A DNA stretch of 38,551 nt from Cytophagales bacterium (GTDB lineage Bacteria; Bacteroidota; Bacteroidia; Cytophagales; Spirosomataceae), in assembly GCA_031423975.1 (NCBI GenBank), contig JANPGQ010000311.1:1-38551 (forward strand). The letters run 5' to 3'. Position 1 is the stretch's first letter. The number at the start of each line of letters is the position of its first letter. Below are positions 3,526-33,308 of the stretch, in pieces. A model generated the notes under the pieces. The model ran no database searches. It had not been told where the DNA came from and was given only the letters and a program-made list of their open reading frames with translations. The position numbers were made by a program, and so were the translations under genes.

Positions 3526-4206
3526 CTAAAACATATCATCAAAAAGTACCGTAACAAATATACCAATTGACTGATTATAATATTGAAAAGTACGGTCGTC
3601 GGCTACGTTATTCAAGCCTAAACTGTATGAAATGCCTATTTGGGTGAATTTTTCTACTTGTATGCCAATACCCATATTGAAACCGTAGTCTATTCTATTT
3701 AAGCCATTGCCAAAAGTTCTTACCGTATTGCTAAACGTACTGTCTGCCCTGTTTCTTTCACTGAGCCGAACGCCTGAATAGACATTTTTACCCGTGATTC
3801 CTACGCCTAAATACGGCCCTGCCCATACGCATAATTGCGTACCAAAACTGTCACGATTTCCGAAAACATAATTCAAATTTGGACAAATGTCTAAGTAATG
3901 CAATTCAAGCGAATTTTCGGTATAAGTAGAATCCGTAAAATTGTATTTGGACTGAAAACCACGAGGACTGTAATGAATTTCGGGTTGAAAACTTAGGCTT
4001 TTAGACAGTCTATAACTAACGCCAAAACCTAAATCAACCACGGGTTTTAGTTTAATACTATTACCGAAAGGAATATTGTCGCCATAGACATTTACTGCTT
4101 TTACGCCAAACCGAAAAATGGAGCGTTCTTTTTTGAGTTGAGCAAAACAATGAGCGGTTGTAAAGAAAGATAGACAAGCAATTAGGGTTATAATGCGTTT
4201 AGACAT
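3526..4206 (-). CDS. Outer-membrane beta-barrel protein (PorT/OMP_b-brl_2-like porin family)
   Basis: Signal peptide ending CFA/Q. Motifs FRFGVK, SFQPEIHYSPRG, LHYLD, AGPYLG, DYGFNMGIG and YSLGL. C-terminal Phe. Confidence 0.75.
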   Translation of the reverse strand: MSKRIITLIACLSFFTTAHCFAQLKKERSIFRFGVKAVNVYGDNIPFGNSIKLKPVVDLGFGVSYRLSKSLSFQPEIHYSPRGFQSKYNFTDSTYTENSLELHYLDICPNLNYVFGNRDSFGTQLCVWAGPYLGVGITGKNVYSGVRLSERNRADSTFSNTVRTFGNGLNRIDYGFNMGIGIQVEKFTQIGISYSLGLNNVADDRTFQYYNQSIGIFVTVLFDDMF

Positions 4207-4326
4207 GGATAGGTTGAGTTTAGTTTTGTTAGAGTATATGCAACATAACAGAAAAAAACCATTAAACCAAGTGTCTATTTGTATTTATAACCTTTTGTTT
4301 ATCAAGCGGTAATGATAATTTAATTT

Positions 4327-5298
4327 TCACAAATTGCGAGGGTCGATGATGATACTGTCGTCTTGGGGTTTGGTAAAACGATATTTCAACATGAGTTCGT
4401 GCGAACCTATCTGCCCTTGTGTACCTATTGGTGCGTTGTAGGCATATCCAAATTGAATTTTGGAACTCACTTGTATTTGTAGAAATCCTACGAACAAATC
4501 TCCTAATCGTACATTTTTGGAAGCATCTCTGAATTGCTGATTACTACTGCGATAGGATGTTCCGAGGGTAAGTTTTTCTAATAATTCCAATTTTGCGTTA
4601 AAATCAAAAGTAGGAGGGGCGTTTTCAATCACTTTCACCAAAACCGAAGGCTCAAAGCTAATGTATCGGGTGAGTCTTGCCCGATACCCTATTTCTCCAA
4701 AATAATAGCGTACTTGTTTATTCTGCCCAGTCGAGCCATTTGTCTCGGTCAAACTCAAATCGTTGGGAATAAACTGGGGAACTGATAGTCCTATGTAAAA
4801 ATTTTGATTGTTCAAATACACTCCTGCTCCTATATTGGGCAAATATTTATTGACATTTTGGGTAAAATTTGGGTCGATAGGAGTTCCTGTATTTACGCAC
4901 GTAAGACAGGCTCTGAAATTAGTTGCTCCCGCCTGTACGCCCATGGTCAGATTCATGTTATCATCATTCAGTTTTACTTTATAGGCGTAATTCAAGAGCC
5001 CGCCCGTGCTTTTCACAATGCCCGCAATATCATTAAAAAACTGAAAACCAAGACTCACTTTTTCGCTTTTTAGTGGTAAAACTCCAATAATTGCTTGCAC
5101 CTGTGGGTCACCTTCAAAATCTGCCCCCAGCCATTGTTTTCTGTACAAAACGTTGACTTCGGGCGTAGTTATTTTGCCTATTTGAGCAGGGTTTATCGCC
5201 ATAGGATTAAAAATATATTGCGAATAAACGGCTTCTTGTTGGGCTTGAATATGATAAAATCCGAAGAGGTAAATGAGGGTAAAGAATATCTTTTTCAT
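4327..5298 (-). CDS. Type IX secretion system membrane protein, PorP/SprF family
   Basis: Signal peptide then QQEAVYSQYIFNPMAINPA, YRKQWLG, NYAYK, PNIGAGVY, YIGLSVP, EPSVLVK, LGTSYR, FGYAY and GSHELMLKYRF, the characteristic PorP/SprF motif order. Confidence 0.92.
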   Translation of the reverse strand: MKKIFFTLIYLFGFYHIQAQQEAVYSQYIFNPMAINPAQIGKITTPEVNVLYRKQWLGADFEGDPQVQAIIGVLPLKSEKVSLGFQFFNDIAGIVKSTGGLLNYAYKVKLNDDNMNLTMGVQAGATNFRACLTCVNTGTPIDPNFTQNVNKYLPNIGAGVYLNNQNFYIGLSVPQFIPNDLSLTETNGSTGQNKQVRYYFGEIGYRARLTRYISFEPSVLVKVIENAPPTFDFNAKLELLEKLTLGTSYRSSNQQFRDASKNVRLGDLFVGFLQIQVSSKIQFGYAYNAPIGTQGQIGSHELMLKYRFTKPQDDSIIIDPRNL

Positions 5299-5324
5299 AT
5301 TTCAGTTATCAGTAAATTTGTTTG

Positions 5325-5370
5325 TAAAAATAAAAGTGTTGATTTTCAATGAATTGACTATCAACACTTT
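5325..5370 (-). terminator. Hairpin plus T-rich tail between the 810-aa gene and porP
   Basis: Arms aaagtgttgat (5333-5343) and atcaacacttt (5360-5370) with inner tcaat/attga pairing. On the minus strand it runs into TTTTATTTTT. Confidence 0.6.
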
Positions 5371-5404
5371 CTGTGATTTTTCTGATTTTAAATTTTACAA
5401 TATA

Positions 5405-7837
5405 TTATTTATTAATGCTCTTAGTTTTTACAACTGAATACGGTACACAAACATTTGGTTTACAGCAATCTACGCTAACAAATTCGGCAGGGCAACATCC
5501 TCCTGCGGGACAACTTCCGACTAAGGTAGTAAAGGTATAAGTTCCCACAGAATTTACTCTTAATGTTGATGCCGTTGCACCACTAATTACCGTTCCGTTT
5601 TTATACCATTGAATTCCTTCATAACCCGTTGGAACGGTAATATCATATTCATCACCACTTCCAGAACAGATTTCGATGGGTACATAAAAGCAAGCCGAAG
5701 CATTATCATCTTCCAATATAGGATTGGTGGTGTTACCCGTTGTGTAAGTATTGCCTGGTTTTGAATCTTTATCCACTTGGTCGCAAGTCATTACTTCTGC
5801 AACATTGAAAAAAGTGCCTTGAGCCACAGCCTGAACGGTTATCATCAAATTGATGGTTTGTTGTCCTGCTAAATTTCCAACCGTCCAAATACCCGTAGAT
5901 GAATTATAAGTACCTGTAGAAGTAGCATAAGTTTTAAACAAAACACCTGCTGGCATATAGTCTTTTACACTAACACCCGTTGCTAAATTTGTACTTTGGT
6001 TAGTTAATGAAATGGTATAGGTAATTAAATCACCAATGATAGATTTTTTCTGATTAACCGTTTTTATCAAGGCTAAATCAACTTCTACCTGTGGATTAAC
6101 TATTCCTGTTACCGTGAAAACAGCCCAAGCACTAACGCACTGATTGTTGGTGTTACAAGCCTGATATTGAATAGAGTCTTTACCTACATAACCCGTTGTG
6201 GGCGTATAAGTAAATGCACCATTAGTTGATAAAGTAATACCACCATGGAGTGGTGTTGGTAATGGAGATATTTTCACCGTTAAAGTACCCGCCGGGGTAT
6301 CATTGGCTAATACATTTCCAGAAACTGGGGTATTTACTGGCGTTGAATAAACATCACGTACTGCCACAGGTGCAGTGCTGGTAACGGTGAAAACCGCCCA
6401 AGCTTTTACGCATACATTGTTTACATCGCAAGCCTCATATTGAATAGAATCTTTGCCTACATAACCTGTTGTGGGCGTGTAAGTGAAAGCACCGCTGGTT
6501 GATAAGGTCAAACTGCCATGTAGTGGAGTGGGGAATGGTGATATTTTCACGGTTAAACCTCCGCTTGGTGTATCGTTGTCAAGTACATTTCCAGAAACTG
6601 GCGTGTTGAAAGGCGTTGAATACACATCACGATTTGCCACAGGTTGTACTGGTGGAGGACCCACCGTTGTGAAAACCGCATAAGCCTTTACACATACATT
6701 ATTGCCATTGCAGGCTTCGTATTGAATAGAGTCTTTGCCTACATAGCCCGTTGTAGGAGTATAAGTAAAAGCACCATTGGTCGATAAAGTTAAACTGCCA
6801 TGTAGTGGAGTGGGGAATGGTAAAATTTTCACGGTTAAACCTCCATTTGGTGTATCGTTGGCAAGTACATTTCCAGAAACTGGCGTGTTGAAAGGCGTTG
6901 AATACACATCACGATTAGCTACCGGTGCGGGTCCTGTTACGGTAATAATAATATAGGCTTTATCACAAACACTTCCTGCATCACAGGCTTCGTATTGAAC
7001 GGAGTCTTTACCTACATATCCCGTTGAAGGGGTATAGGTAAATGCTCCCGTTGAAGACATCGAAATACTGCCATGAAGTGGCGTGCCTAATGAGGATATT
7101 TTGACGGTTAAACCCGTTGCTGGAATATCATTGGTGAGAGCATTGCCCGAAACGGCTGTATTAATAGTGGTACTGATATTATCATTAACCGCATCCACAG
7201 TAGGATTAGTACAAAGCGTGTTTAAACAAACGTTATAGCTTTCAAAAACGCCCCCTGCTGGTACAGTTGGGTTACTATAATCGTAAGGATCAGGCGTGAT
7301 TACGATGATTTCGTTCATTCCTGTTACGGGAAAATCCGTATTGGTGTTGTCGGTATGCCATTTAAAATTGACACATCCATCTCCTTTCACAATATCAAAT
7401 TGAATGCAAGCAATGGTGATATAAGCTGTTCCTACTTGTTTAGCACCTGCATTACTGCCTGAATATAAAACATTTAGAGATACCAATCCCATTGTGCCAT
7501 CAGCACTAAGTTTTGACCCCGTTAAGGTTTGAGTTCCGTAGTTGGAATCACTGGCGGGAGCGGCATTCGAGAAATTTTCTTGGCTAATGTTTTTAGGATT
7601 ATTTACAACAGTGGCGTCATAATCAAAACGGAAATTTCCGTCTCCTAATTTGAACGTCGAGTTGGCATCGTGTGCTTTTACCTGTACCTGCAAGACTACT
7701 TTCTTGGTGATACAGTCACTACTTTTTAGTTTGAGTCTAACATCAAACTTTCCATTTGGCGTTGTTTGTGCAATAGACGGCATTGCCCAAAGCAATACCA
7801 TCAGACAAGTTAAAGTGGCGGCTAAAACTTTTCTCAT
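5405..7837 (-). CDS. Secreted 810-aa protein: cohesin-like N-domain, 4 Big_9/cadherin-like Ig repeats, DUF11 domain, Cys-rich C-tail
   Basis: Signal peptide SIA/Q. Repeats of PVA.RD.YSTP.NTPVSGNVL.ND...GAFTYTP.TGYVGKDS.QY.AC. DUF11 pattern VDLALIKTV...GDLITYTI.LTN...ATGVSVKD.MPAG...WTVGNL. Ends CPAGGCCP...CCKPNVCVPYSVVKTKSINK. No type A or type B CTD seen. Confidence 0.85.
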   Translation of the reverse strand: MRKVLAATLTCLMVLLWAMPSIAQTTPNGKFDVRLKLKSSDCITKKVVLQVQVKAHDANSTFKLGDGNFRFDYDATVVNNPKNISQENFSNAAPASDSNYGTQTLTGSKLSADGTMGLVSLNVLYSGSNAGAKQVGTAYITIACIQFDIVKGDGCVNFKWHTDNTNTDFPVTGMNEIIVITPDPYDYSNPTVPAGGVFESYNVCLNTLCTNPTVDAVNDNISTTINTAVSGNALTNDIPATGLTVKISSLGTPLHGSISMSSTGAFTYTPSTGYVGKDSVQYEACDAGSVCDKAYIIITVTGPAPVANRDVYSTPFNTPVSGNVLANDTPNGGLTVKILPFPTPLHGSLTLSTNGAFTYTPTTGYVGKDSIQYEACNGNNVCVKAYAVFTTVGPPPVQPVANRDVYSTPFNTPVSGNVLDNDTPSGGLTVKISPFPTPLHGSLTLSTSGAFTYTPTTGYVGKDSIQYEACDVNNVCVKAWAVFTVTSTAPVAVRDVYSTPVNTPVSGNVLANDTPAGTLTVKISPLPTPLHGGITLSTNGAFTYTPTTGYVGKDSIQYQACNTNNQCVSAWAVFTVTGIVNPQVEVDLALIKTVNQKKSIIGDLITYTISLTNQSTNLATGVSVKDYMPAGVLFKTYATSTGTYNSSTGIWTVGNLAGQQTINLMITVQAVAQGTFFNVAEVMTCDQVDKDSKPGNTYTTGNTTNPILEDDNASACFYVPIEICSGSGDEYDITVPTGYEGIQWYKNGTVISGATASTLRVNSVGTYTFTTLVGSCPAGGCCPAEFVSVDCCKPNVCVPYSVVKTKSINK
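6580..6916. repeat. Near-identical intragenic tandem repeat units (282-nt period)
   Basis: The 55-nt string caagtacatttccagaaactggcgtgttgaaaggcgttgaatacacatcacgatt occurs identically at 6580-6634 and 6862-6916. Confidence 0.85.
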
Positions 7838-7883
7838 GTTTGTATATATTTAATTGAAATTTTTGGTAGTGATTGGTTATTCG

Positions 7884-7954
7884 TTTGCCTTTGTTGGAGT
7901 TTTCTCCAATAAATTGGACGGTAGCTTGTTGGATAAAACTCCAACAAGGGCAAA
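7884..7954. repeat. REP-like inverted doublet (26-bp arms, each itself palindromic)
   Basis: tttgcctttgttggagttttctccaa (7884-7909) versus ttggataaaactccaacaagggcaaa (7929-7954), 2 mismatches. It is flanked by inverted TAACCAA-type heptamers. A related copy lies at 28652-28729. Confidence 0.7.
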
Positions 7955-7997
7955 AAAATAACCCGATAACAAGTAACCAATAACCAATTCCCATTCA

Positions 7998-8912
7998 CTA
8001 ATAATTCACGGTAATGAAACGAGTGAAGTTCTTTCCGTCTGCTCGTTTCACAGCGTAATAATATGTTCCTGGACTTACGGCACGGCTATTATCAAGTCCA
8101 TCTTGATTTGGCTTACCATCCCATTCGTTTTTATAATCGTCTGCTTTGTAAATCACCCTTCCAGAACGGTCAAAAATGGTAATACCCATATTGATATTTT
8201 CAGGATTTTTGATTTCGAATTTATCATTTACTCCATCTCCATCTGGCGAAAACCCCTCTGGAATGAAGAATGATTCGTTGGTTGGCAATTTTGATTCCGC
8301 TGAACAGGTAGATGCTAAATCAATTTTGAGGCTTTCAAAAGTTCCTGTTGCTTTGATATTTTGAAGTTGGAATTCATTATCTCCATTAGCATCTTTGTTT
8401 ATCAAAACTTCGTTCATACCCGTAGCAGGGAAACTCTTTCCCAAGCCTTCTTGCCACTTGATTTCCATGACTGATTTCAAGTCCACAAGGTCGAAACTAA
8501 GGGTTGAGACGGTTAGGTATTGTGTGCTAACCTCAGTAGCACTTTCACCCAAACCACCATAAAAAGTGTTTAAAGAAACGATGCCTTCTTTCATGCGTGC
8601 TGTACTTCCATTCAAATTATGTGAGCCATAATTTTTATCGGAAATTTCACCATGAGATGAGAAAAAGCCTTGCTTTTCGAGGGTTGGATTACTGATAACT
8701 GTGGGATTGTATGCCATTCTGTAATTAGCATCACCCATTTTGAATTTTGATTTTTCATCATGAGCTTTTACTTGTACATCCACTGATAATTTTTTGGAAG
8801 CACAGTCTAATTTCTGGGTGGCGATTCTGACATCGAAAACGCCATTTTGGGCATTCACGGCATGGCTGCCGATGAGCGAAAGCCCTAATATATAAAGATA
8901 TTTTTTGTTCAT
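7998..8912 (-). CDS. 304-aa T9SS substrate: cohesin-like domain fused directly to a type B (gliding motility-associated, CHU_C) CTD
   Basis: Start MNKKYLYILG at 8912, signal peptide VNA/Q. The C-terminus FFIPEGFSPDGDGVNDKFEI...IFDRSGRVIY...YKNEWDG...PGTYYY...FITVNY is the type B CTD pattern. Confidence 0.9.
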   Translation of the reverse strand: MNKKYLYILGLSLIGSHAVNAQNGVFDVRIATQKLDCASKKLSVDVQVKAHDEKSKFKMGDANYRMAYNPTVISNPTLEKQGFFSSHGEISDKNYGSHNLNGSTARMKEGIVSLNTFYGGLGESATEVSTQYLTVSTLSFDLVDLKSVMEIKWQEGLGKSFPATGMNEVLINKDANGDNEFQLQNIKATGTFESLKIDLASTCSAESKLPTNESFFIPEGFSPDGDGVNDKFEIKNPENINMGITIFDRSGRVIYKADDYKNEWDGKPNQDGLDNSRAVSPGTYYYAVKRADGKNFTRFITVNY

Positions 8913-9006
8913 GTCCATTAATTTTTGTGCCTTGTGGCGGTTCGAGAACAAAGTTCATGGTCGGTAAGTATGTTGCAAATACCAAGCCAGTTTTAACACA
9001 GTTCTT

Positions 9007-9066
9007 GGTGAACGGTTTTTCGACTATATTTTTCGCCGTGTACCGTTCACCCTTTACCTTTTACCT
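9007..9066 (-). promoter_or_regulatory. Intergenic hairpin with heptamer repeats just downstream of the 2163-aa gene
   Basis: ggtgaacggt (9007-9016) and accgttcacc (9042-9051) form a perfect 10-bp inverted repeat. The right arm is part of tcgccgt-gtaccgt-tcaccct-ttacctt-ttaccta. Confidence 0.5.
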
Positions 9067-9071
9067 AATTT

Positions 9072-12000
9072 TTAATGCAATACTCCTGAATAACGTCCGC
9101 TATTTTGTTTCCATAAGCTGTTATCCATAAAGTTTGAGTCGGCATCTAAATTGAAATCACTCAATAAATAAATATCAAAACTTCCTGATAAACTCTTCCA
9201 TAGGAGTGAATCTTTGAAATTGATGTCGTAATTATCATTGATAGTAGCTTTTGAACCATCTGCAGCGTACATCACGAACTTAGTACCAACCTGTTTTTCT
9301 CCAAATGATGGAGGGTTTGTTAGCTGATAGCTTTGTTGTGCCGTAAAGTCATACGTAATTTTACCAGCCGATACAGGCACTTTTACGTGCGACATTACCC
9401 CCATGTGATTGCGATGTTCGATAACCACGTAGAATGAACCACTCGGTAAAGTGAAGCATGGATTGACAAAACTAATGTGTCCGTCGCTGTGCAATAAACC
9501 TGCCACACTGAGAGCCTTGCTTGCCTTTGTCGAATCTGTACGAAGCGATACCAAAACCCAATCAACCACCGTAGTAGGATATGCAGTTATGGTTTCTGAC
9601 CCTGTATAACTAAATGGTAATAAATTGTAGGGTTGTCCTCCTGGTGTTGCCACAGCATAATTTCCCACAGGTGTTTGTCCTGGTAATAATCCTCGTTGAT
9701 TCAAAATGGTACTCATCAAACCTGTATTTGAGTCATAAGGTCCTTGAAGAATTACCTTGAAGTCAAACGTAACGCAAGGCTGTTCTAATATAGTAATATA
9801 TGCCGTTGCAGTAGTGCATAAAACTGGCGAACCATTATCACAAACCTTATACGTGAACACATCTGTACCCACAAACGTAGCGTTTGGTGTATAGGTAAAT
9901 GCACCCGTAGTGGCATTGAATACAATCGTTCCGTTGGCAGGGTTGGTCAATTTGGTAAATGCCAATATTTGCCCTGCATCGGGGTCGCTATCGTTCAAGG
10001 CTACTGAGGCTGATACAGATGTGCCTTTGAGCGTAATCTTGTAGTCGTCATTAGCAACTGGTGGATTATTTACTATCCCAACGGTTGCATCTTTTACATT
10101 GATTGTTACTACCGCCGTATCACATTTTGCAGTATTTGAAGCATCACAAACTTTATATTTATAGGTATCAATTCCTACGAATACTGGGTTTGGTGTATAA
10201 GTCATCGTGCCATTTGCATTAGTTACTACTGTACCGTTTAGTAGTGTTCCGATAGCCGTTGGCAAGCCCAAAGTACCTGCTGTATAAGTATCGTTTGCCT
10301 TTACAGAAATAATAACCGCCGTAGCTTTTGGGGTAACAGCATTATCGTCCAATGCCACTGGTAGTGTATTTGCTTGTGGTGTAATGCTGGGATCAATGAT
10401 GGTCAAATATGCCGTAGCATTTGAACACATAATTGGCGAACCATTATCACAAACCTTGTAAGTAAACAAATCACTACCTACGAATCCAGAATTTGGAATA
10501 TAAGTATATGTTCCGTTTGGATTAAAGGTAAGCGTTCCGTTTACTGGGCTTGACGTATTGCTGAAAGTCAAAATCTGTCCTATATTCGGGTCAGAATCAT
10601 TGGTAGCTACTGACGACGTTATGGTTGAATTTTTGTTCAACGTTTTAGCATCGTCCGTTGCTACTGGTGGTTCGTTTTTCACTACATTCATTGACTCATT
10701 TACTGAAACTGTTACGGTTGCAGTACTACATAACGAAGGTGTTCCCGAATCACAAACCTGATACGTGAAGGTATCGTCGCCAGTTGTTCCTGGGGTTGGC
10801 GTATAAGTAATCGTTCCATCAGGATTCACTACTACCGTTCCTTTGGTTGGCGGTGTGGTGATAGTCGGATTCTTCAAAGGCGTACCTTCTGGGTCGGCAT
10901 CATTGGCTAATACATTGATAGTTAAGGGCTTGTCTTTCGGCGTACTCGTATTGTCAGGATTGGCTAATGGTGGCAAATTTGTACCAGAAGTCAATGGCGT
11001 TGTGATGGTAATGGTTACCGTAGCGGTATCACACAATGAAGGCGTTCCGTTATCACAAACCTTGTATTTGAAAGTATCATTACCCGTAGCCGTTGGATTT
11101 GGCGTATAGGTAAATGTTCCGTCTGGCAAAATTGTAACTGTTCCTTTGGTTGGTGTTCCACCCATAATTGGACCCGAAGCTACTAAAGGATTGCCCTCTG
11201 GGTCGGTATCATTGGTCAAAACATTACCTGTTATTGGTGTACCTTTTGGGGTTACGGCAATGTCATTCGTAGCAATTGGAGCATCATTTTTAGGTAATAC
11301 TGTTATTGGAATGATAACATTGGTACAAATTCCTGAAGCATCACAAACTTTTACACAAACCGTATCTTTTCCCGAAAAATTAGGAAGTGGCGTGTAGGTA
11401 ATACAAACCTGATGTGGCGTTGTACTATTATTTACCGTAACCGTAGTAGCACCGTGTTTCGGAGCAGCACATAATGAAACTGTATGCGTTTCGTTGGCAT
11501 CGGGGTCATTTATTGGCAAACAAACCGTTACGGTACTATCTTCAGGTACAATGATTGGCGTTGGCACAATAACTGGAGGGTCTGGTACAGGCGTAACTTT
11601 CACAGGTACTTTGATGGTAGTACAATTTCCATAAGCATCACACACCTTCACACATACCGAATCAGTACCATTAAAATTAGGATTGGGCGTGTAAGTAGTA
11701 CAAACCTGATGTGGTGTTAAAGTATTATTTACCGTGTAAGTAACCGTTCCGTTTAATGCACCACAAGGTGTAACCGTATGAGTATCAACTGCATCAGCAT
11801 CCACAATTGGCATACAGAATGTGATTGGTGTCCCGTCTTCTGGCATCGTTGGTGGCGTAACTGGTGGTGTAATTACTGGTGGTGCTGAATTGATATTCGT
11901 TACCGTCAAAATCACCGTTGCGTTGCTACATAATACTGGCGTTCCGTTATCACAAGTCTTATACGTGAACATATCCGTACCCACATAATTGGTAGCAGGT

Positions 12001-15563: not shown

Positions 15564-15643
15564 GCGAAGAATTGTTTAGGATGTACTAATTTATTAAAAT
15601 ATCCATCTACACCTGGCAGGGCGGAGGAGTGGACATACGTTTC

Positions 15644-15832
15644 AATTGATAATTGACAATTGATAGTTGACAATTGATAGTTGACAATTAACTGTGAATG
15701 ATTATTACGATATAAAATGTTTTAGGGATACTTAGGAAGGGAATGTTTTAGTTTCGGGTACTTAAATGTGTGGATTAATATAATTGATAATTGACAATTG
15801 CATACTTAGTATCAATTGTCAATTATCAACTA
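15644..15832. repeat. AATTGAY heptamer array with an inverted copy forming a hairpin
   Basis: Seven tandem heptamers at 15644-15692 (aattgat aattgac aattgat agttgac aattgat agttgac aattaac). A 17-bp perfect inverted repeat: ttgataattgacaattg (15784-15800) and caattgtcaattatcaa (15813-15829). Confidence 0.85.
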
Positions 15833-15834
15833 TA

Positions 15835-24800: not shown

Positions 24801-27800
24801 TTGGACTACCCAAAGTTGCCAAAGGCGTACAAACTTTCACCGTTGAATCCTGTGGGGTAACAATTGGTGCAATACAACTTGATGAGGCAAAAATGGTGGT
24901 TTTAACTACATTACTCACGCAAGGCGAAGCCACGTGTATATTGGTATAAACACCCACACCCAAACCTGTGATAATTAATTTACCGCTTCCGTCAGACGTT
25001 CCTGTAGCTGACAGAACTGAACCACCATCTTTCTCATAATTAAAAATATATGTAGTCGAAGCCGTTAGGCCTGAGAAGGTAATTGAACCGTCATTTCCTC
25101 CGCAAGTGTTTGGACTTGTAGGTTTCACTACTGCCAAAGTACCAGGGCAAGCCGTACAAGCGGCAATCGTTACAGATACTCCCGTTGAAGCAGGACTGAA
25201 ACAATTGGCTGGCGAGCTGGCTTTTGCGTATAAATAATACATGCCAGAAACCGAAACGGGCATAGTTACCAAATCGGTTGCCGTTGGGTTTGTCGCTACA
25301 CTGTGCCACTCTAAGGTAGTGCCAGATGCTGGAGTTGGCTGAACACTGGTTAAATCAACCGTGGTACTTGGACACGTGTTTGACTGTGCCGCTGTGCTAC
25401 TCAACACTGGAGTGGCTGGTGCAGTACAACAAACCGTAATGGTTACAACAGCCCCCTGAGAAGCAGGACTGAAACAATTGGCTGGCGAAGTGGCTCTTGC
25501 GTATAAATAATACGTTCCTGCACCTACCGCCGACGGTGTTGTTACTGAATCGGCAGTAGTTGGATTGCTCGCAACGGTGTGCCATTCTAAGGTAGTTCCA
25601 GATAGTGCAGTAGGTTCTAAACTGGTTAAATCAGCCGTGGTGCTTGGGCATATATTTGATTTAGTGTTGCTTGCCAATACAGGAGCAGACGGTGGTGTAC
25701 AAACCACTGGACAAGCCACAATATTCACCATTATTGGGCTGGTAGCCAGACCATAACAACTTGATGATGGCGAATAATAAGCTGCATAATACGTTCCCGA
25801 TGTAACGGTTGTTGGGTCAGCAATCTGATTCGCTAACGTAGGCGAATTACTGGTATGCCACGTAACATAAGACCCCGCTTTTTTATTGGTACTGTCGATA
25901 TGCGACATTAAATTGACTGTAATGGCAGGGCAAATATTCGTAACAATCGTAGCTGGACAAGGATTTATCGTAACTGTTACTGGACTCGTAGAAGCACCAT
26001 AACATCCTACTATTGTTTCGTAATATGTAGCATAATAGGTGCCTGATACCGCTACCGAAGTAGGGTCTGGTACTTGATTAGTAGCCGTAGCAGTGCTTGC
26101 TGTATGCCACGTAACATAAGAATTTGCGGGCTTGTTAGTGCTATCTATATGAGCCATCAAATTCACAATATTTTCAGGACAATTATTAAAAATATTTGTT
26201 GGACTTGAAACCGTTAGCGTATATGTTTTAGTGATACAGTTTGATGTTGGCGTATTGGTATCACAAACCCTGATACAGTAATAATAAATACCAGCCGTTG
26301 AAGGTGCGGTATAAGTATAAACCCCTGTTGTTGAGTTTGTTACCGTCAAATTGCTTCCCGAAGGAAAAGCCGTTCCACCCGAAGGAATAATACAAGAAGC
26401 CGTATTATCTACCGAATAAACATACGTACCATTTCCACCCGATGGAGTTAAATCCGTACTTGCTGTTCCCGTTTTGGGGGTATTAATCACTGCAGTTTGT
26501 GCAGGTGGATTTGTGGCTGCAATTGGATCTAAACAAACTGAAATAGTTGCATCTACTGAATCCGCAGGGCTGTAACAATTATTCACTTTGTCAAAATACA
26601 ATGCATAATATTTACCTGCCGTTGAAACCGTTGTCAAATTCGTTAAGGTATCGCTTGCTGAGGTTGGTACTTTGTGGGTACTCCAAATTAAGGTTGTTCC
26701 TGCTGGTTTTGTGCCTGTATTTGCTAATCCTGCCAAACTAACTGTAGTTGTAGGACAAGTATTTATTACCGTCGTGGCTGTGATAATTGGGGCAGTTGTT
26801 CCTGCTACGCAAGTAATACAGTTGGCACTTTGTACTAATTTATTTTGGCTATTATTTACAGTCTGTCCTGTGTTTGCAACCGTTGGGACACCTAAAGTTG
26901 TAGTGGTACTTCCAACCGTATTTCCTAAGTTTTTAACTACTGGACTTGTTGAAGTTCCTGTGTAACCTGTTCCGCTGTTTCCACCTGCAATCGTTGAAGT
27001 TACTAAACTGGTAGTTGCAAAATTTGCTCCTCCCTCAATCGCATCTGGGCAACCGTCACCGTCTGAATCTAAATCTATTGTATTTGCTATTCCGTCTCCA
27101 TCCAAATCACAAACGGATGGTACTTTAAACGGTATAAATAAATCGTCAAACCGTACTCTATTTGATGGGTCTGTATTTTGCTCGTCATACAGGTAAAATC
27201 TAAAAAAATAGTTTGTTCCACTTGATAATAATTGTGATGGAATTGGATAATCATATGATAAATATCCTCCTGCTATCATGTTACCAACTTGTTTATCTTG
27301 AAATAACAATGAGGGAGTGGTAAATGCACTGTTATTTGAATACTCTAAGGCTATCTTAAAATTACCACAGTTAAAATCTGGAACCGAATTTGAATTTGTA
27401 AAAAAACCAAGTCCGATGTGTTCAATTGTTATGTTTTGTGATGGTAAAAAAGATACCTGTACGTAATCGTTCCCAATTTTAGCATCGGTAAAATTAGCTG
27501 CTGTTGCATTTCTTATTAAATAAGTATAGGCATAATTATCCGTAGATTCATTAAGTCCTGAACCGAAACTCGTGTTTTGAGTTGAAGAAAAATAACCCGA
27601 AGCTGTAGTAGGGACAAATGTTGCCGCATCACTTTGTCCATTAGAATCATTATGAAGATATTCAATCTGAGATGAAGGACATTCTGCAGTATCTAAAATA
27701 CCATCATTATCATCGTCTAAATCTACGGAGTCGAGTACACCATCACCATCAGAATCAAAATCAACCAATACAACTTTTGTACAAGCACCACCGCCTTGTG

Positions 27801-28776
27801 AGGATGTAACGGTAAGTGATCTATTTCCAACTACACCTGTACCATCAAAAGAAATTGGAATGATTACGGATGTTTGTCCTGCGGTTAATGTTTGCGTAAG
27901 TGTTCCCGTAAAACCTGCTCCTGTTACATTAAAAGTTGCTGCACCAGCAGTAGTACCTGTCAATGGTATTGTCAAAGAACCCGTTTGTCCTGATACGCCA
28001 TTGGCAATAAAAGTGCCTGTGGAAGTAGCTGAGCCACAATTAAACGTAAATTGTGGTGGAATTCCGTAATAACCTCCCCAAGAATTTACATAGTCTAAAC
28101 AACTGACACCTACGGTTGTTTGTACAACTACTACATAACTTGCATTAGGAGTTAATCCTTTCCAAGCAGGGTTAAGTGTATTGGTTTCACTACCGCCAGT
28201 TTGGGCAGAAGTTATGCCATCATTCACCGTGGTTGGTGCTATTGCCGAACCAGTACAAACATTTCCTGCATAACTGTATAGAGCAAACTGCCGTGAATTT
28301 GAAATTTGGTTTAGACACGCTGTAATGTTTATCGTTAATGCATTAGTAGAAAATCCATGAAAAAAGCCAACATTACCATAAGTATCCGTTGTTACTATCC
28401 ATGATTCAGTAATAACTGTAGTTGGCAATTGTATACCTGCAACCGCATGAGCAGTAAGTGCTGCATAAGTGGTAGTTGCTTTTGTTTTGGCATCGGCAGT
28501 GTAGGTACTTGTTTGGCAAGGCAATGCTGCATTATAGCTTGGCGTTTGAGCATAAACCTGTTGAAAGCCTCCTTTCAACATTAACATAAATAATGCTAAC
28601 TGAAAAAATCGCATTTTTAAAAAACGTATGCCGTTAACAGAGTTATTTAACGCTTTTGTTGGTATTTTCACCAACAAGCTACCCTCCGATTTGCTGGTCT
28701 GGGCGACCCCGCTCAACACCAACAAAGGCGAAAAGGCAAAAGTATTTGACGATGGAAAAAGTAGCGGCTTTTTCAT
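15835..28776 (-). CDS. Giant (~4313 aa) secreted adhesin: N-terminal head with Asp-rich Ca-binding motifs, Cys-containing Ig domains, one SprB-like repeat, ~28 Big_9 repeats, C-terminal dockerin-like domain
   Basis: Uninterrupted 13-kb ORF. Start is ATG 28776 (MKKPLL) or 28614 (MRFFQLAL...VYA/Q). TSP3-like motifs [22 protein letters not shown] and [22 protein letters not shown]. The C-terminal domain is paralogous to that of the 2163-aa protein. No type A or type B CTD. Confidence 0.88.
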   Translation of the reverse strand: MKKPLLFPSSNTFAFSPLLVLSGVAQTSKSEGSLLVKIPTKALNNSVNGIRFLKMRFFQLALFMLMLKGGFQQVYAQTPSYNAALPCQTSTYTADAKTKATTTYAALTAHAVAGIQLPTTVITESWIVTTDTYGNVGFFHGFSTNALTINITACLNQISNSRQFALYSYAGNVCTGSAIAPTTVNDGITSAQTGGSETNTLNPAWKGLTPNASYVVVVQTTVGVSCLDYVNSWGGYYGIPPQFTFNCGSATSTGTFIANGVSGQTGSLTIPLTGTTAGAATFNVTGAGFTGTLTQTLTAGQTSVIIPISFDGTGVVGNRSLTVTSSQGGGACTKVVLVDFDSDGDGVLDSVDLDDDNDGILDTAECPSSQIEYLHNDSNGQSDAATFVPTTASGYFSSTQNTSFGSGLNESTDNYAYTYLIRNATAANFTDAKIGNDYVQVSFLPSQNITIEHIGLGFFTNSNSVPDFNCGNFKIALEYSNNSAFTTPSLLFQDKQVGNMIAGGYLSYDYPIPSQLLSSGTNYFFRFYLYDEQNTDPSNRVRFDDLFIPFKVPSVCDLDGDGIANTIDLDSDGDGCPDAIEGGANFATTSLVTSTIAGGNSGTGYTGTSTSPVVKNLGNTVGSTTTTLGVPTVANTGQTVNNSQNKLVQSANCITCVAGTTAPIITATTVINTCPTTTVSLAGLANTGTKPAGTTLIWSTHKVPTSASDTLTNLTTVSTAGKYYALYFDKVNNCYSPADSVDATISVCLDPIAATNPPAQTAVINTPKTGTASTDLTPSGGNGTYVYSVDNTASCIIPSGGTAFPSGSNLTVTNSTTGVYTYTAPSTAGIYYYCIRVCDTNTPTSNCITKTYTLTVSSPTNIFNNCPENIVNLMAHIDSTNKPANSYVTWHTASTATATNQVPDPTSVAVSGTYYATYYETIVGCYGASTSPVTVTINPCPATIVTNICPAITVNLMSHIDSTNKKAGSYVTWHTSNSPTLANQIADPTTVTSGTYYAAYYSPSSSCYGLATSPIMVNIVACPVVCTPPSAPVLASNTKSNICPSTTADLTSLEPTALSGTTLEWHTVASNPTTADSVTTPSAVGAGTYYLYARATSPANCFSPASQGAVVTITVCCTAPATPVLSSTAAQSNTCPSTTVDLTSVQPTPASGTTLEWHSVATNPTATDLVTMPVSVSGMYYLYAKASSPANCFSPASTGVSVTIAACTACPGTLAVVKPTSPNTCGGNDGSITFSGLTASTTYIFNYEKDGGSVLSATGTSDGSGKLIITGLGVGVYTNIHVASPCVSNVVKTTIFASSSCIAPIVTPQDSTVKVCTPLATLGSPSATAASCPGYPKVAGATALATIESGQLCITYKPKPGFVGTDSVCVTLCDAVTATCTTIKVLVTIKPVPLAINDINVTLVNVPVGSSVATNDTKTTTTDVFTATTTPNHGTIVFNPNGTYTYTPSTDFVGKDSINYKICSVDNLCTTATLYLNVYKPSITTNLPPIAQNDVAQTNMNIPVSGNLASNDFDPENGALKYTLIPVSNPSHGTVSINANGSYTYTSNPGYIGTDTFEYQVCDDLNQCTTAKAVVYIRPDANGITTNDAPFAQDDSYRTTLSVPVTGNVRLNDSDPNGNVLTTTMTSPTTHGIFALAVNGAFTYTPTLGYFGTDQLKYKACDAAGLCDTATVYIVVVPPVPDAQLDVNITTKNNPISGNILTNDNGGGLAFTLTPYALVDPLHGAITLNANGSYTYTPTIDFVGKDSVQYVICNTASLCDTSWLTINVIDPIRFINNAPVASDDAGQTLKNIPVSGKVTNNDIDPDGDVLSASVIVQPDNGTVTLNTDGTYTYTPDPNFTGRDKFQYKVCDTKGACDTATVVITVSPDYNGTTNDRPNAQDDAALTNLNIPVSGILKSNDTDPNGNTLTYTTTPTTPPVHGTVTITAAGNYTYTPATGFFGTDQFKYKVCDNGSPTLCDTATVYVVVLAPTPDAQNDINVTLKNKPVSGNTATNDTGNGLPFTTNPILVKNPIYGNLTVATNGVYTYTPATGFVGKDSAQYVICNAASRCDSAWIIVTILPGTFVNGNNPPIANSDVVQTLKNVPVSGKVTNNDLEPDGDPLTATLTKSPVNGTIVFNPDGTFIYTPNANFVGNDVFCYKICDPSNACDSTCVGITVSPDINELANDKPNAQDDAAITAMNTAVTDQLKPNDSDPNVGQTLTYSNTPVTAPAHGTVTINPTTGQFVYTPTIGYSGTDKFLYKVCDNGTPSLCDTATVFLTIIPPVTNNPNAINDINLTFKNTPVSGNVLTNDDKAGQVVTTSLVTATPPKNGTITLLPNGNYTYVPKANFVGKDSTKYILCNTVSLCDTAWIYLNVLPYPPSMVDNNPPVASNDVSVTYLNKPVNGSVGNNDFDPDIAQILTYTNLTDPNDGILVFNPDGTYTYTPVTDFAGIDMFKYKVCDNGTPVKCDIATVTIEVKPKSANSNDKPVANDDAYVTYKGVGVNGNSAQNDSDPNGNTSGGEPLAFSKLTNPANGTVIMNANGTFSYAPNATFIGTDSFTYKICDNGTPVMCDTATVYLTVLPPKQPDANKPDAVNDIAMTIKNTPVGGNVLTNDDSKGNPLVVGLPSGTAPKHGIIAINPDGSFIYTPTTGYVGKDSVKYVICVNEIPMVRCDTAYIYFNVSDVPSPQNDKPIANNDVAKTEAGVPVKGNVLGNDVDPDLGDVLVATKLTDPAHGTVTLNPDGSYIYTPTVGFVGKDYFTYKACDNGNPVKCDSAKVEIDVTPVITPLNANSKPAAQDDALLTKINTPKSGTVALNDTAPDAGQTLVFSQLSNPAHGTITGFNPTTGTYTFTPTAGFVGNDSFKYKVCDNGSPVLCDSATVIITIETDDKITNPVAQNDIAITSPNTPVKGNVLTNDDSKGNPLMASQLTNPKNGTIVFNPNGSYTYTPNPTGGVPHYVGRDSVKYKVCNALIPVQCDSAWLYINTIPYPTAGNDKPVAMPDNVVTQQGSPVSSSVLGNDYDPDLGQTLTTSKISDPANGTVTVNANGTYTYTPNPTFVGTDVFKYKICDNGSPSLCDTTTVTIKIVPLDPTLPLTVNLKPDAGDDVVVSTGGQTVTTSVIGNDRDPNAGQTLTYTLLNQPTKGMVTLSPTGTLVWTPGIDPALPGATYTVKYKVCDNGSPVLCDTATVELRTQPSMTQPDAQDDIAVVRVNTPVTGNVLTNDDKKGLPVTPSVITPAKNGVFALNPDGSYTYTPNPNFVGVDSVKYKICNNAVPVECDSAWVTFKVIPDPATGANDKPVAFNDVTQTNAGTPVSGNASINDFDPDSGQTLTFTTLTNPTNGTATMNPNGTFTYTPNGGFTGTDVFKYKVCDNGTPVLCDTAKVIITVEPVTPNPAVNQPPVAIDDAILGIEGKPVTYNVSGNDKDPEGTPLAFTKLGGNPNVTIDALGNVTYTPAIDPLTGKPIGGNTVTYKVCDAGTPVKCDTATIYLTVSPSSTQPLAVNDINNTLINTTVTGDVLTNDDKKGLPVVVTQLTTAKHGSLTISPNGTYGYIPTTGFVGKDSVQYQICNNEVPAECSKAWLYINVAPLPNTANDKPIASADVAQTLVNIPVSGKVTNNDTDPEGGILTATKLTNPVNGTLVFNPDGTFTYTPNSGFIGKDKFTYKVCDTGSPVLCDTASVTIDVTPKLSPVGGNDAPNAQDDAIVTNINTAKTATVAPNDSDLNTGQTLSFMKVSNPVHGTVTVNADGSYTYIPTTAYTGPDKFTYKACDNGTPSLCDTATVYVSVLPSPIPTVSSPVAFDDINIVPKNTTVTGDVLTNDDKKGLPVTVSLLAPATHGTLTLNPNGTYSYTSTTGFIGKDSAQYQMCNNKVPAECDIAYVYLYVQDAPTVSPINNKPTAIHDVNQTLVNIPVSGTVASNDFDPDLGQTLAFTKLTNPTNGTAVLNTNGTYIYTPATGFVGTDVFKYKVCDNQTPALCDTTTVTIKVTPDYSGGGNIKPVANDDAYTTNKGVGINKSASLNDNDPNAGQTLSYSLLTLAANGTVSFNPDGTFAYTPNATFVGTDKFLYKVCDNGTPSLCDTATVYLSVKDPILSVCVNFNLKVLLEGPLNTVSGLMNNFLNVRGLLPGQTPIGITATPTPNGQPYSGTPWNYAGTEAMPLGGYATDIVDWVLISLRTDSLTTTPVFRAAGLLHADGNVTFVNPCFTIANGSYYVLVEHRNHMGVMSDKKITVTTGTLTYDFTTNDSYALTNPPSYGQKVKAGKYVMYAADHKKALQNDNFDINAADSNLWKLQSGIFDRYLSGDYNFDADVNNSDNTLWKVNNGRFSGVAH
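16560..24600 (-). repeat. Array of 27 Ig-like repeats organised as 9 A-B-C triplets
   Basis: Manual parsing of the translation. The DNA motif ggcaaacctttcttatc recurs at 17351, 18248 and 19145, exactly 897 nt (299 aa) apart. Confidence 0.8.
28652..28729. repeat. Second REP-like doublet, at the 5' end of the giant adhesin gene
   Basis: gcttttgttggtattttcaccaacaagctaccctccgatttgctgg...caccaacaaaggc aligns with the reverse complement of 7884-7954 (gcccttgttggagttttatccaacaagctaccgtccaatttattgg...ctccaacaaaggc), including the spacer. Confidence 0.7.
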
Positions 28777-28800
28777 AAATTTAATTCTGATTGTTTGGTA

Positions 28801-28882
28801 GTACACTCCGTTTTATCGGAGGTACTAAAATTTATTCTGAACGAAACTCATCGCATGAACTCAGTTTAGCCATGCCATGAGT
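28801..28882 (-). promoter_or_regulatory. Two intergenic hairpins between the 854-aa and giant adhesin genes
   Basis: actcatcgcatg (28846-28857) and catgccatgagt (28871-28882), 1 mismatch. Also gtacactccg/cggaggtac at 28801-28825. Confidence 0.5.
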
Positions 28883-28900
28883 AACCTTGTTAAAACCTCT

Positions 28901-31465
28901 TTATTTCAAGCCTGGCACCGTTGTTCCGAGTGGACAAGCGGGTGCTGCCACCGTCAAAGTATAAGTTTTGGTCAAACAGCTTGGTGTGGGCGTAGTGGTA
29001 TCACAAACCTTGATACAATAGTAATATGTACCCGCAGTGGTAGGGGTTGTATAAGTATAAGATCCTGATATTAAATTAGTTATCGTCAAATTACTGCCCG
29101 ATGGTAAAGCTGTTGCACCCAATGGAGCAATACACGAAGCTGAATTATCCACCGAATAAACATAAGAACCATCACCACCTGCGGGGGTCAATTCCGTAGA
29201 AGCATTGCCTGTTTTTATTTGGCTTGGCGTGGCAGTTTGTGCGGGTGGATTCACTGCAGTAAGTGGTAGTGCTGCTGCTGTTACGGTGAGTGTATAGGTT
29301 TTAGTTACACAGCTTGGCGTTGGCGTAGCGGTATCGCACACTTTAATACAATAATAGTAAGTGCCTGCTGCGGCAGGAGTAGTGAAAGTGTAAGCCCCTG
29401 TTGTTGAATTAGTTACTGTCAAATTGCTGCTTAATGGCAAAGCCGTAGCTCCACTCACAGGCGTACATGATGCTGAATTATCTACTGAATAAACATACGT
29501 TCCATTACCACCCACAGGTACTAACTCAGTAGCTGCATTGCCCGATTTAGGACTATTGGCAACGCCAGACTTCGGAGCAGGAGTATTAGTCGTAACGGGT
29601 GGAATACAGGGTTTGATAGTATTATCAAGAGCTTTGGCATAAGTAACTGTGTAATTTACGGCTGCCGTTGGGGTATCATTAGTCTCTTTAGTATTTACCA
29701 AACCGTTTGCACCCACGGCGGTAGTAAATTTATAATCGGGTGTCAAACTGGTAGTTGCTCCTGCCTCAAAAGCATCCGAACAACCATCACCATCCGAATC
29801 CAAATCTTCTGAATTGGCTATACCATCGTTATCAGTATCACACGTTTGGCTAAATGTTACAGTTCCGTTTTCAACGGCAAAAAGTCCTCTACCTGCATTG
29901 GCAACGGTTGAACCATCCGAAAATGCAGTGTAATCAAATGTATAAGTTTGCCCATGACTTCCTACATAAGGTAGCGTATTAGCCGTGTTAGCAGTATTTA
30001 GAGCCGCTTGAAGTTGTGGTTTGGCATAATAACCATTTGTATAAGTAGTTGAGCCTCCGGCATTAAATACTGAAAATAAATCAAAAGATTCACTCACAAT
30101 GCTATAACCCGCAGGAAGCGTTGGTAATGCCGCAATTCCTACCGTAAAAGTTCCTAAATTGACAATAGCGGCTGAACTCAATAATGCTTGTATATCTTGG
30201 TCTGGTCCACCCGCTCCATTGGCCTCCGCTTGTTGGTTTGCCGAAGGGCGACCTGTATAAAGCGAGGCTACGTTCGGGCTAACTCCTGCATAAGTTGCTG
30301 TACCAAAAGCGGCGGTTACACCCGTTGCCCATTTATTATCCGCCCCAAAGAGGTTAATAAAATCTGAATAGGTAACTCTAACAGTAAATGAAGCCCCAAT
30401 AGTAGGAACAGCTAATCCGCTGGTTAATTTATAAGTCAAATCAAAATATCCACCGTCTGTACCCACACCCGTAAAACTGGTAGCAGTGGCATCCATTGTA
30501 TATACTGAATTGGTGTTTGGACATTCTACTACGTCCAAAATACCATCATTATCATCATCAATATCAATGGCATTTCCGATACCGTCTCCGTCTGTATCTT
30601 TATCAACCAAAACATTTTTTGAACAAGTACCCGATCCACCAGATGATGTTACCGTTAAAGTTCGTGTACCCGCCGTGCCAGTACCATCATAAGTAATAGG
30701 AATGGTTACTGAGGTTTGTCCTGCCATAAGCGTAGTAGTTAATACTCCCGTAAAACCAGTACCTGAAACGTTGAAGGTAGTTAGTCCAGACAAGGCATTT
30801 GACAGCCCAACCACAAATGTTCCTACACTGCTCGTTGATGCCACAAATGACCCTGTGGTGCTTGAAACGCTACAATTATAGGCAAACTGAGGGGATACTG
30901 CTCCGTAATATCTGATGGATGAACTTTGATATTGAATACAAGAAGCATCAACCGTTGTTTTAATAACAAAGATATAATCTGTATTGGGAGCAAGCCCAAC
31001 GTATTCATTATTGAAGGTGGAACTATTTCCCCCTTTTCTAACGGCTTGTATTTCAGGTCCTGTACACGCCCCACCACTGCTTTTCAAGTACAAACTACCC
31101 TTCCGAGAGGCAGCCGTATTAGCAATACAGGTTGTGTTTCCGGTTGCTTGGTTAGTTTGAATTTGGTTAATAATACCTACTGTTCCATTAGCATCCGTTT
31201 TCACAGTACCACATTGCGTAAAAGTAGTACCAGGATTATTGGCATACGTGGTTACCCCTGCACCAGATCCAGAAGAAGCAAGAGCAGCAGTGGCATAACC
31301 AGTAGAGGCATTTACCGTACAACCCGTACAAGTAATGCCCTGCAAGGGTAGTTGTGCTTGGACTTTATTCAGAGCCGAAACCCAGAAATACAGTACACAA
31401 ACAAATAAGTTTAACCATAACCTTCTGTTTTTTCTTAGACTTTGTGTTTCGTAAATCGTACTCAT
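28901..31465 (-). CDS. 854-aa secreted protein paralogous to the N-terminal head of the giant adhesin
   Basis: Start MSTIYETQ at 31465, signal peptide VQA/Q. Shares the head domains, the Asp-rich motif pair and the YVYSVDN...YYYCI.VCDT...TKTYTLTV module (2 copies) with the giant protein. Ends [12 protein letters not shown]. No CTD. Confidence 0.85.
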
Positions 31466-33222: not shown

Positions 33223-33308
33223 ATATTTGGCTGTTGGCTGTTTGTGCTTTGCTAAAATAAATCAATATCTTTACGAAAAAAAAATTGCTTTTTAAAACCG
33301 TCAATTAC

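Follow-up and report, generated by a model that had tools for sequence, protein, structure and literature searches.

A predicted cohesin-dockerin chain with a putative type IX secretion anchor in a Cytophagales bacterium

We analyzed a 38,551-nucleotide window (the whole stretch of DNA studied here, contig JANPGQ010000311.1 of the Cytophagales bacterium assembly GCA_031423975.1), in which seven minus-strand open reading frames (ORFs) between positions 3526 and 31465 encode proteins of 854, 4313, 2163, 304, 810, 323 (PorP/SprF) and 226 aa (OMP_b-brl_2). In our judgment, this locus probably encodes a predicted cohesin-dockerin chain that runs from the 4313-aa protein through the 2163-aa protein to a 304-aa anchor and on to PorP. 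More specifically, the 4313-aa giant would dock by its C-terminal X-module/dockerin (tail Y) on the N-terminal cohesin (domain X) of the 2163-aa stalk, and the stalk's own dockerin would dock on the cohesin of the 304-aa protein, which the secretion system of type IX (T9SS) would export via a C-terminal domain (CTD) of type B and the PorP barrel would hold on the surface. Binding between X and Y would depend on Ca2+, two orthogonal specificities would fix the order of the chain, and the product would be a fibre with ~44 immunoglobulin (Ig) repeats in series, which at ~4 nm per repeat would extend ~175 nm and may serve adhesion. A preliminary description had read the locus as seven co-oriented genes with interlocking architecture, and the ORFs bear out both the sizes and the modules.

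The 4313-aa protein (15835..28776) is the proposed tip unit, with a mosaic head that has no enzyme match, 27 Big_9 stretches and a C-terminal Y (15838..16545); its signal peptide probably begins at Met55. The 2163-aa adaptor (9072..15563) carries an X (14898..15473), likely the socket for the giant's Y, followed by 17 Big_9 stretches and a Y of its own (9075..9776, with the dockerin part at ~9075-9272), and neither protein bears a CTD. The 304-aa anchor (7998..8912) combines a signal peptide, an X (8298..8846) and the type B CTD (8010..8264; TIGR04131/CHU_C). A third X (7202-7759) is found on the 810-aa protein (5405..7837), together with 4 Big_9 stretches, DUF11 and CVP-CTERM, and the PorP/SprF-family carrier lies at 4327..5298. 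In alignments, the three X copies were 37-40% identical to the first copy and the two Y copies 59% identical to each other, and a six-frame search found no further copies in the assembly (5.19 Mb, 95% complete, 785 contigs). Family scans of the window proteins put names to the Big_9 stalks, the type B CTD, PorP/SprF, DUF11, CVP-CTERM and the small barrel, and to none of X, Y and the heads; a PDB sequence-profile search with the giant's head yielded nothing above noise level, its best E being 0.2.

The cohesin assignment of X comes from its predicted structure. We modeled the X of the 304-aa anchor with AlphaFold2 from an 80-sequence alignment, reaching a predicted local distance difference test score (pLDDT) of 94.5. 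Foldseek gave 53 matches to this model at E 0.001 or better, and all 38 of the rows listed were cohesin entries (best E 4e-6). Likewise, structural realignment (VIA) against the PDB reached a best Z of 13.5 (root mean square deviation 2.7, 141 residues aligned), with cohesin entries at ranks 1-46 of 50 and the first non-cohesin, integrin domains, at Z 9.4. By predicted fold, X is a cohesin, as had been proposed on its first description as cohesin-like. X sequences fail the Pfam Cohesin (PF00963) cut-off, and the Atlas match for X was to a cluster that is 13% Cohesin (score 0.91), but with a recognition value below threshold. One distant protein (L166:5522) had an X-profile match that coincided with a sub-threshold Cohesin match, and a type A CTD after them.

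Tail Y is, as judged from its model, probably a type II X-module plus a dockerin. The Y of the adaptor was modeled from 32 sequences; confidence was good for its beta part and poor for its helical tail, with helices predicted at residues 187-196 and, at low pLDDT, 216-225. Type II X-dockerin chains took ranks 1, 2, 4, 5, 6 and 10 in Foldseek, and upon realignment (VIA) the top 8 rows were X-dockerin chains that spanned both parts (Z 5.0-5.7; next, 3.9). Dockerin calcium loops are numbered by the positions D1, N3, D5, N9 and D12, with a helix after each loop. The dockerin part of Y contains duplicated DxNxDxxxNxxD calcium-loop motifs, one complete and one with an insertion, and loop 2 is complete in both window copies. 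Distant relatives of Y have two regular calcium loops, and one of the 20 scanned passed the Pfam Dockerin_1 cut-off (26.7 vs 22.9 bits); the Atlas neighbour cluster of Y is 15% Dockerin_1. Among the best 120 of 934 relatives, Y was the last domain in every case (120/120), none carried a CTD, and 30 also carried X. The earlier view of Y as dockerin-like is therefore retained on weak but class-specific X-dockerin matches, with the amendment that Y is predicted to be not a bare dockerin but one preceded by an X-module.

We ran the proposed co-distribution check on X and Y in 151 genomes of the family. Y was found in 78 of these genomes and X in 43, and 42 of the 43 X-positive genomes also had Y; moreover, of 45 strong Y matches, defined by a score of 265 bits or more, 36 ended <400 bp upstream of an X match. 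Behind genes of a distant Y class (Y2) comes another N-terminal module, X2, which the X profile missed and which was found in 59 of the 151 genomes. X2 (~160 aa, unnamed; L080-L092, L107, L260-L261) pairs with Y2 and is borne by proteins of the kinds that also bear X, namely stalk-Y adaptors, CTD anchors and DUF11-CVP proteins; its anchors end in a type A CTD, a type B CTD or CVP. Pfam gave X2 no name, and its position makes it a candidate cohesin. With both modules counted, Y occurred with X or X2 in 71 genomes, Y alone in 7, X/X2 alone in 6 and neither in 67, so that X/X2 was present in 71/78 Y genomes versus 6/73 Y-negative genomes. Metagenome Y genes stood directly before X in 18 of 23 cases at 295 bits or more and in 0 of 43 below that score. 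In the phylum sample, Y matches were obtained in 43 of 301 genomes, and 22 of 34 genes directly behind Y had a type A CTD match (36 genes minus two duplicates; 5 of the 12 misses were cut by the locus end).

The order of the chain is suggested by the matching of classes along it. In Arcicella-type loci, loop-1 positions 10-11 of Y, putative recognition residues, are AA in giants (4/4) and F[KN] in adaptors (7/7), and the X behind each Y type forms its own supported clade; in the window, the loop positions 10-11 are AA and NS in the giant's Y and FK and FM in the adaptor's. The cultured environmental strain Arcicella aurantiaca DSM 22214 and strain LKC2W carry a five-link chain (giant-Y2, X2-Y2, X2x3-stalk-Y, X-stalk-Y, X-CTD), together with X-DUF11-CVP and PorP, and the module type after each tail in the chain is the one that accompanies that tail elsewhere; the A. 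aurantiaca giant has head modules in common with the window giant, but a tail of the other class. Across 54 adjacent pairs, X distance went more closely with the dockerin part of Y, at a partial r of 0.51, than with 300 random column sets (0.23 ± 0.09, at most 0.44) or with beta-part windows (0.03-0.36), a co-divergence that is suggestive of pairing. Inter-protein mutual information was weak, with 14 of the 30 top pairs in the dockerin part versus 8.3 expected (~42 effective pairs). Fusions were found as well: Y-X-type A CTD in two proteins of the complete genome G277, X-20 Big_9-type B CTD in the complete genome G316, and a Pfam cohesin fused to Y in G202. The proposal that Y-bearing giants dock on the 304-aa anchor thus finds support in the tail-to-module gene order, but the layout suggests an ordered chain and not interchangeable docking. 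The window gene order recurs in five further loci (L031-L033, L049, L051), and the nearest X relatives are Arcicella records (73-84% identity). Neither X nor Y had a match in the six sampled genomes of the same genus, so the distribution of the locus is patchy.

At the base of the chain, the CTD of the 304-aa protein scored above cut-off (TIGR04131, 47.3 vs 35 bits; CHU_C likewise), and together with a signal peptide read by eye it gives the protein the features of a type B T9SS substrate. SprA and PorV are present in the genome, as are 6 PorP hits; the window porP sits two genes downstream of the 304-aa gene, after the 810-aa gene and not directly after the CTD gene. In family scans, none of the 4313-, 2163-, 854- and 810-aa proteins had a type A/B CTD above cut-off, the sole trace being CHU_C at E 0.036 on the 854-aa protein. 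In published work, type B substrates exit the translocon on a cognate PorP/SprF carrier, to which they remain bound (PMC9143113, PMC12618676, PMC10994853), and a Cys-x-Cys in the periplasmic C-tail ties the gliding SprF to the gliding track (PMC12635249). No Cys was present in the C-tail of the window PorP, nor in eight printed PorP tails of X/Y loci, and the window porP has no porE neighbour. For want of a Cys tail on PorP, linkage to the gliding track by the SprF mechanism was ruled out. The small barrel (OMP_b-brl_2, 226 aa, 3526..4206) stands after porP here and in L031, and was not seen after porP in L032, L033, L049 and L051, so it is probably accessory. We rejected it as a carrier for CVP-CTERM proteins, as no such barrel was flagged behind CVP genes.

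Several points weigh against this assembly. Binding of X to Y is itself a prediction from fold and gene order. Window X and Y have no Pfam family match; just 6 of 80 X relatives reach Pfam Cohesin, weakly (best E 0.0021), 1 of 32 close Y relatives reaches Dockerin_1 (PF00404, E 0.13), and PDB sequence-profile searches with X and Y returned no cohesin or dockerin. Within the Y model, confidence is low in the dockerin part (residues 209-234, pLDDT <50), and the first calcium loop bears an insertion, with D1 and N9/D12 kept around it. The best Foldseek E for Y was 0.038, with 0 matches at E 0.001, and its realigned Z was <8, a score that common arrangements can reach. The co-occurrence counts are descriptive, as related genomes are not independent, and they are inflated by Y and X2 profiles built partly from loci beside X or Y; profile comparison of X2 with X gave no significant match. 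X was not directly behind Y in 9 of the 45 strong family matches and 48 of the 66 metagenome Y genes. Finally, genomes with 42-55 Y but 3-4 X matches fit poorly with one-to-one towing.

The last point bears on export, for which we favour a role of the 304-aa protein as a secretion signal in trans that would tow out partners docked in the periplasm, yet this is the least supported step of the proposal. Possibly, though we find it doubtful, Y is a plug that also holds an unrecognized T9SS export signal, such that the giants would be secreted singly and dock on the cohesin at the surface, giving the same assembly by other export. Y is always C-terminal, as CTDs are, anchors are few in the two genomes whose dispersed Y genes number 42 and 55, and Y shows weak structural echoes of CTDs (8glk_D, Foldseek E 0.41; mirolase CTD, Z 3.5). 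However, these echoes are at noise level and ranked below X-dockerin, fused Y-X-CTD proteins retain a real CTD behind Y, and the frequency of type A CTDs on genes directly behind Y (22/34) is expected if Y needs a CTD partner. Export through a CTD-bearing partner is also at stake in the idea that the chain stays periplasmic or exits by a non-T9SS route, with the CTD protein and porP serving a separate function. To this we give scant credence: the giants do have signal peptides and no CTD, and export by a type I secretion system (T1SS) is proposed for the Chlorobium analogue discussed below; but no T1SS or porin-type exporter gene lies within the locus, the last X gene of most chains bears a type A/B CTD or a CVP tail, and a rod of 27 Ig repeats would far exceed the width of the periplasm, by its usual dimensions.

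As for the docking itself, we deem it unlikely that X and Y bind without fixed order, with giants docking in parallel on the 304- and 810-aa proteins and the adaptor polymerizing head to tail or cross-linking cells. The window has three X for two Y, many loci have an X-CVP protein as the next one after Y (CVP being the label of 17 of 54 pairs), and tandem X2/X3-DUF11-CVP proteins of Runella, Arsenicibacter and Fibrella resemble multivalent scaffolds; on the other hand, in Arcicella-type loci each of the three X types has a well-supported clade to itself, the putative recognition residues differ between the two Y types, and classes match along the five-link chain. That there is no interaction strikes us as very improbable; on that reading, X would be a tip of cohesin fold that binds a ligand, Y would cap the protein and bind calcium, and the genes would cluster only as an array of surface-protein paralogs. 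A common fold shows no function (integrin domains reach Z 9.4) and many Y genes are orphan, but such an array would not account for directional adjacency across orders and classes, for class matching and fusions, for co-divergence with the dockerin part only, or for the rarity of X without Y (1/43), and it would leave the giants without a route to the surface.

Two proteins stand beside the proposed chain. The tail of the 810-aa protein, described earlier as a Cys tail, exists, but it is a named NCBIfam putative sorting domain, CVP-CTERM (5420..5470; NF058574, above cut-off). In many loci the partner behind Y is an X-CVP protein, which makes the 810-aa X-DUF11-CVP protein a likely second or alternative anchor, or a side branch. 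CVP tails also occur on proteins without X in this genome; further examples lie on G000 contigs C87:4641-15619 and C662:2-952, one of 2437 aa and three in tandem. We found no literature on CVP-CTERM in a search outside which subscription papers lay. The 854-aa exported protein (28901..31465), with DxDxDG repeats and Ig-like modules, had been taken for a head only; it is indeed a paralog of the giant's head without X, Y or CTD, but it ends in a conserved short Cys tail. It is probably not a truncated or broken head copy, given that its Arcicella ortholog (929 aa) ends in the same tail. This short C-terminal C-x-x-G-x-x-[AV]-P-x-[LV]-[KR] tail (window 28901-28945; also L263:14155 and L079:10585) is possibly related to CVP-CTERM.

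The gene set was checked against a contig from another study's sequencing run that covers 6883-17400 with 61 substitutions in ~10.5 kb. All indels listed for this contig are intergenic, and the stops between the 4313-, 2163-, 304- and 810-aa genes are thus not assembly errors; the splitting of a single frameshifted gene was ruled out by the separate signal peptides and this independent contig. Scans for sigma-70 promoters (46 vs 38.1, with a sigma-70 model whose coverage excludes Bacteroidota promoters) and for terminators (10 vs 11.2) stayed near the shuffled level. RNA data amounted to a single 254-base contig in one metatranscriptome, which is uninformative on expression. The intergenic stretch 15640-15800 contains short AATTGTCAA-type repeat units in both orientations, whose copy number differs between strains and at which loose contig ends gather; they are likely a dispersed repeat element. 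Outside the locus and unrelated to it, 33285-34490 (+) encodes a protein that has a lamin-tail domain and a type A CTD, the latter weak.

Variants of the X and Y arrangement were observed in other genomes. Five of the nine X-less strong Y matches precede a ~650-aa non-X gene; in L094, L096 and L098-L101, strong Y genes are followed by this conserved ~650-aa exported protein without X, and Pfam gave no match on the one such protein scanned. The tandem X2/X3-DUF11-CVP proteins of Runella, Arsenicibacter and Fibrella (L053-L056, L063-L065, L068, L071, L102, L104 and L105) head giant-protein clusters and look like small scaffoldins. In Larkinella (L010, L011, L013, L057, L059, L060), shrunken or broken X-Y adaptor genes lie just upstream of an intact X-CTD gene. 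Y also occurs inside RHS-repeat, polymorphic-toxin-like proteins (L091:836-5101, L223:3-4724, L243:2-2854, L220:623-4804), upstream of where the RHS core ends and of the variable C-terminus, and could tether them to a surface cohesin.

The cargo of Y is broader elsewhere. Some close Y proteins have M43 peptidase and GEVED heads, M43 being found in 4 of 21 Y proteins scanned. Y matches number 42 in the complete genome G316 and 55 in the complete genome G277, against 4 and 3 for X and 1 and 2 for Pfam cohesin, respectively. Among 20 of their cargoes, Pfam detected M12 metalloproteases, alpha-amylase, esterases, CotH kinase, CAP, BNR, GSDH and FG-GAP, and five had no match at E 1e-5. Loop residues are uniform within each of these genomes (VADF-like and AFD-like; L264-L285). 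By analogy, these many-Y sets are candidate cellulosome-like surface complexes, as their many-Y-to-few-cohesin ratio resembles that of a cellulosome. The earlier statement that there are no recognisable enzymes accordingly applies to the seven window proteins, which have 0 enzyme or carbohydrate-binding module (CBM) family matches, but not to their relatives, which carry peptidases and other enzyme cargo. The window locus is not a cellulosome: it has no enzyme or CBM and, with one X per protein at most, no multi-cohesin scaffoldin.

Cellulosomes nevertheless share its predicted layout, in which a small cohesin-plus-anchor protein stands at the cell surface. As predicted for the window, the Clostridium thermocellum CipA X-dockerin II/SdbA-OlpB pair joins a C-terminal X-module plus dockerin plug to a type II cohesin socket, and in the Acetivibrio cellulolyticus ScaA-ScaB-ScaC system (PDB 2b59, 5k39, 5g5d and 4u3s, with the C. 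thermocellum system) adaptors bear both modules. Relative to these cellulosomes, structural identity is ~10-18%, the beta part of window Y is larger and there is an insertion in its loop 1, the proposed anchor consists of a T9SS CTD plus PorP barrel and not SLH or sortase, the locus has no glycoside hydrolase or CBM3, and the diderm host requires outer-membrane export.

Several published systems resemble the window in part. The Chlorobium chlorochromatii pair Cag_2038/Cag_2037 (bioRxiv 10.64898/2026.03.19.712371, a 2026 preprint) has an AlphaFold 3-predicted interaction, for which an extended surface bridge is proposed. Like the arrangement predicted for the window, it consists of adjacent genes, with an Ig stalk ending in a dockerin, then a type II cohesin start plus Ig repeats. 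Unlike the window, it comprises two genes with InterPro-detectable modules, an RTX/alginate-lyase end and proposed T1SS export; the dockerin protein is the proposed cell-side partner, and the sections at hand describe no CTD anchor, PorP or multi-step chain. SprB/SprF, Fjoh_3952/Fjoh_3951 and PG1035/PorP/PorE (PMC9143113, PMC12618676, PMC12635249) share with the window a type B CTD gene near porP/sprF and, as proposed for the window, carrier-bound anchoring, but in these type B adhesins the giant itself bears the CTD, whereas in the window it lies on the 304-aa protein and the giants have none. Candidatus Stygibacter (Cloacimonadota, a T9SS-related lineage; PMC8542988) has a predicted cohesin scaffold with a C-terminal CTD and dockerin hydrolases, a complex that resembles the many-Y genomes G316 and G277; unlike the window, it has one large tandem-cohesin/CBM scaffoldin, standard Pfam-type modules and no ordered stalk chain, and it is a prediction only. 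For anaerobic methanotrophic archaea (ANME)/Seep-SRB (PMC10553843), non-cellulosomal cohesin/dockerin genes beside Ig-like adhesins recall the window, with aggregation proposed; these are other phyla, with no T9SS and no assembly model described in the text seen. Dockerins are also reported in rumen Bacteroidetes (PMC6487960). A T9SS-anchored cohesin-dockerin chain in Bacteroidota was not found in the titles and abstracts of the literature, subscription papers lying outside the search. The preliminary description knew of no characterised system like this, which stands for the T9SS-anchored form but has to be qualified for the comparable cohesin-dockerin Ig-stalk pair predicted in Chlorobium.

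On a wider scale, we tentatively suggest, at less than even confidence, that Bacteroidota may use a phylum-wide cohesin-dockerin code as a detachable T9SS signal, whereby small cohesin-CTD proteins would take to the surface and anchor there, in trans, cargo that has a dockerin tail and no CTD. Orthogonal classes would build ordered multi-gene fibres, of as many as five links in Arcicella aurantiaca; where a genome has 40-55 dockerin genes, they would build cellulosome-like surface complexes that comprise peptidases, esterases, amylases and adhesins. The CTD is what defines T9SS cargo and what its prediction relies on; if Y cargo reaches the surface via a cohesin-CTD partner, secretome predictions would miss a whole class. 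If this suggestion is true, cellulosome-type assembly would extend to diderm surface fibres, long adhesins would be built and re-tipped from separate genes, and new cohesin-dockerin pairs would be available for surface display.

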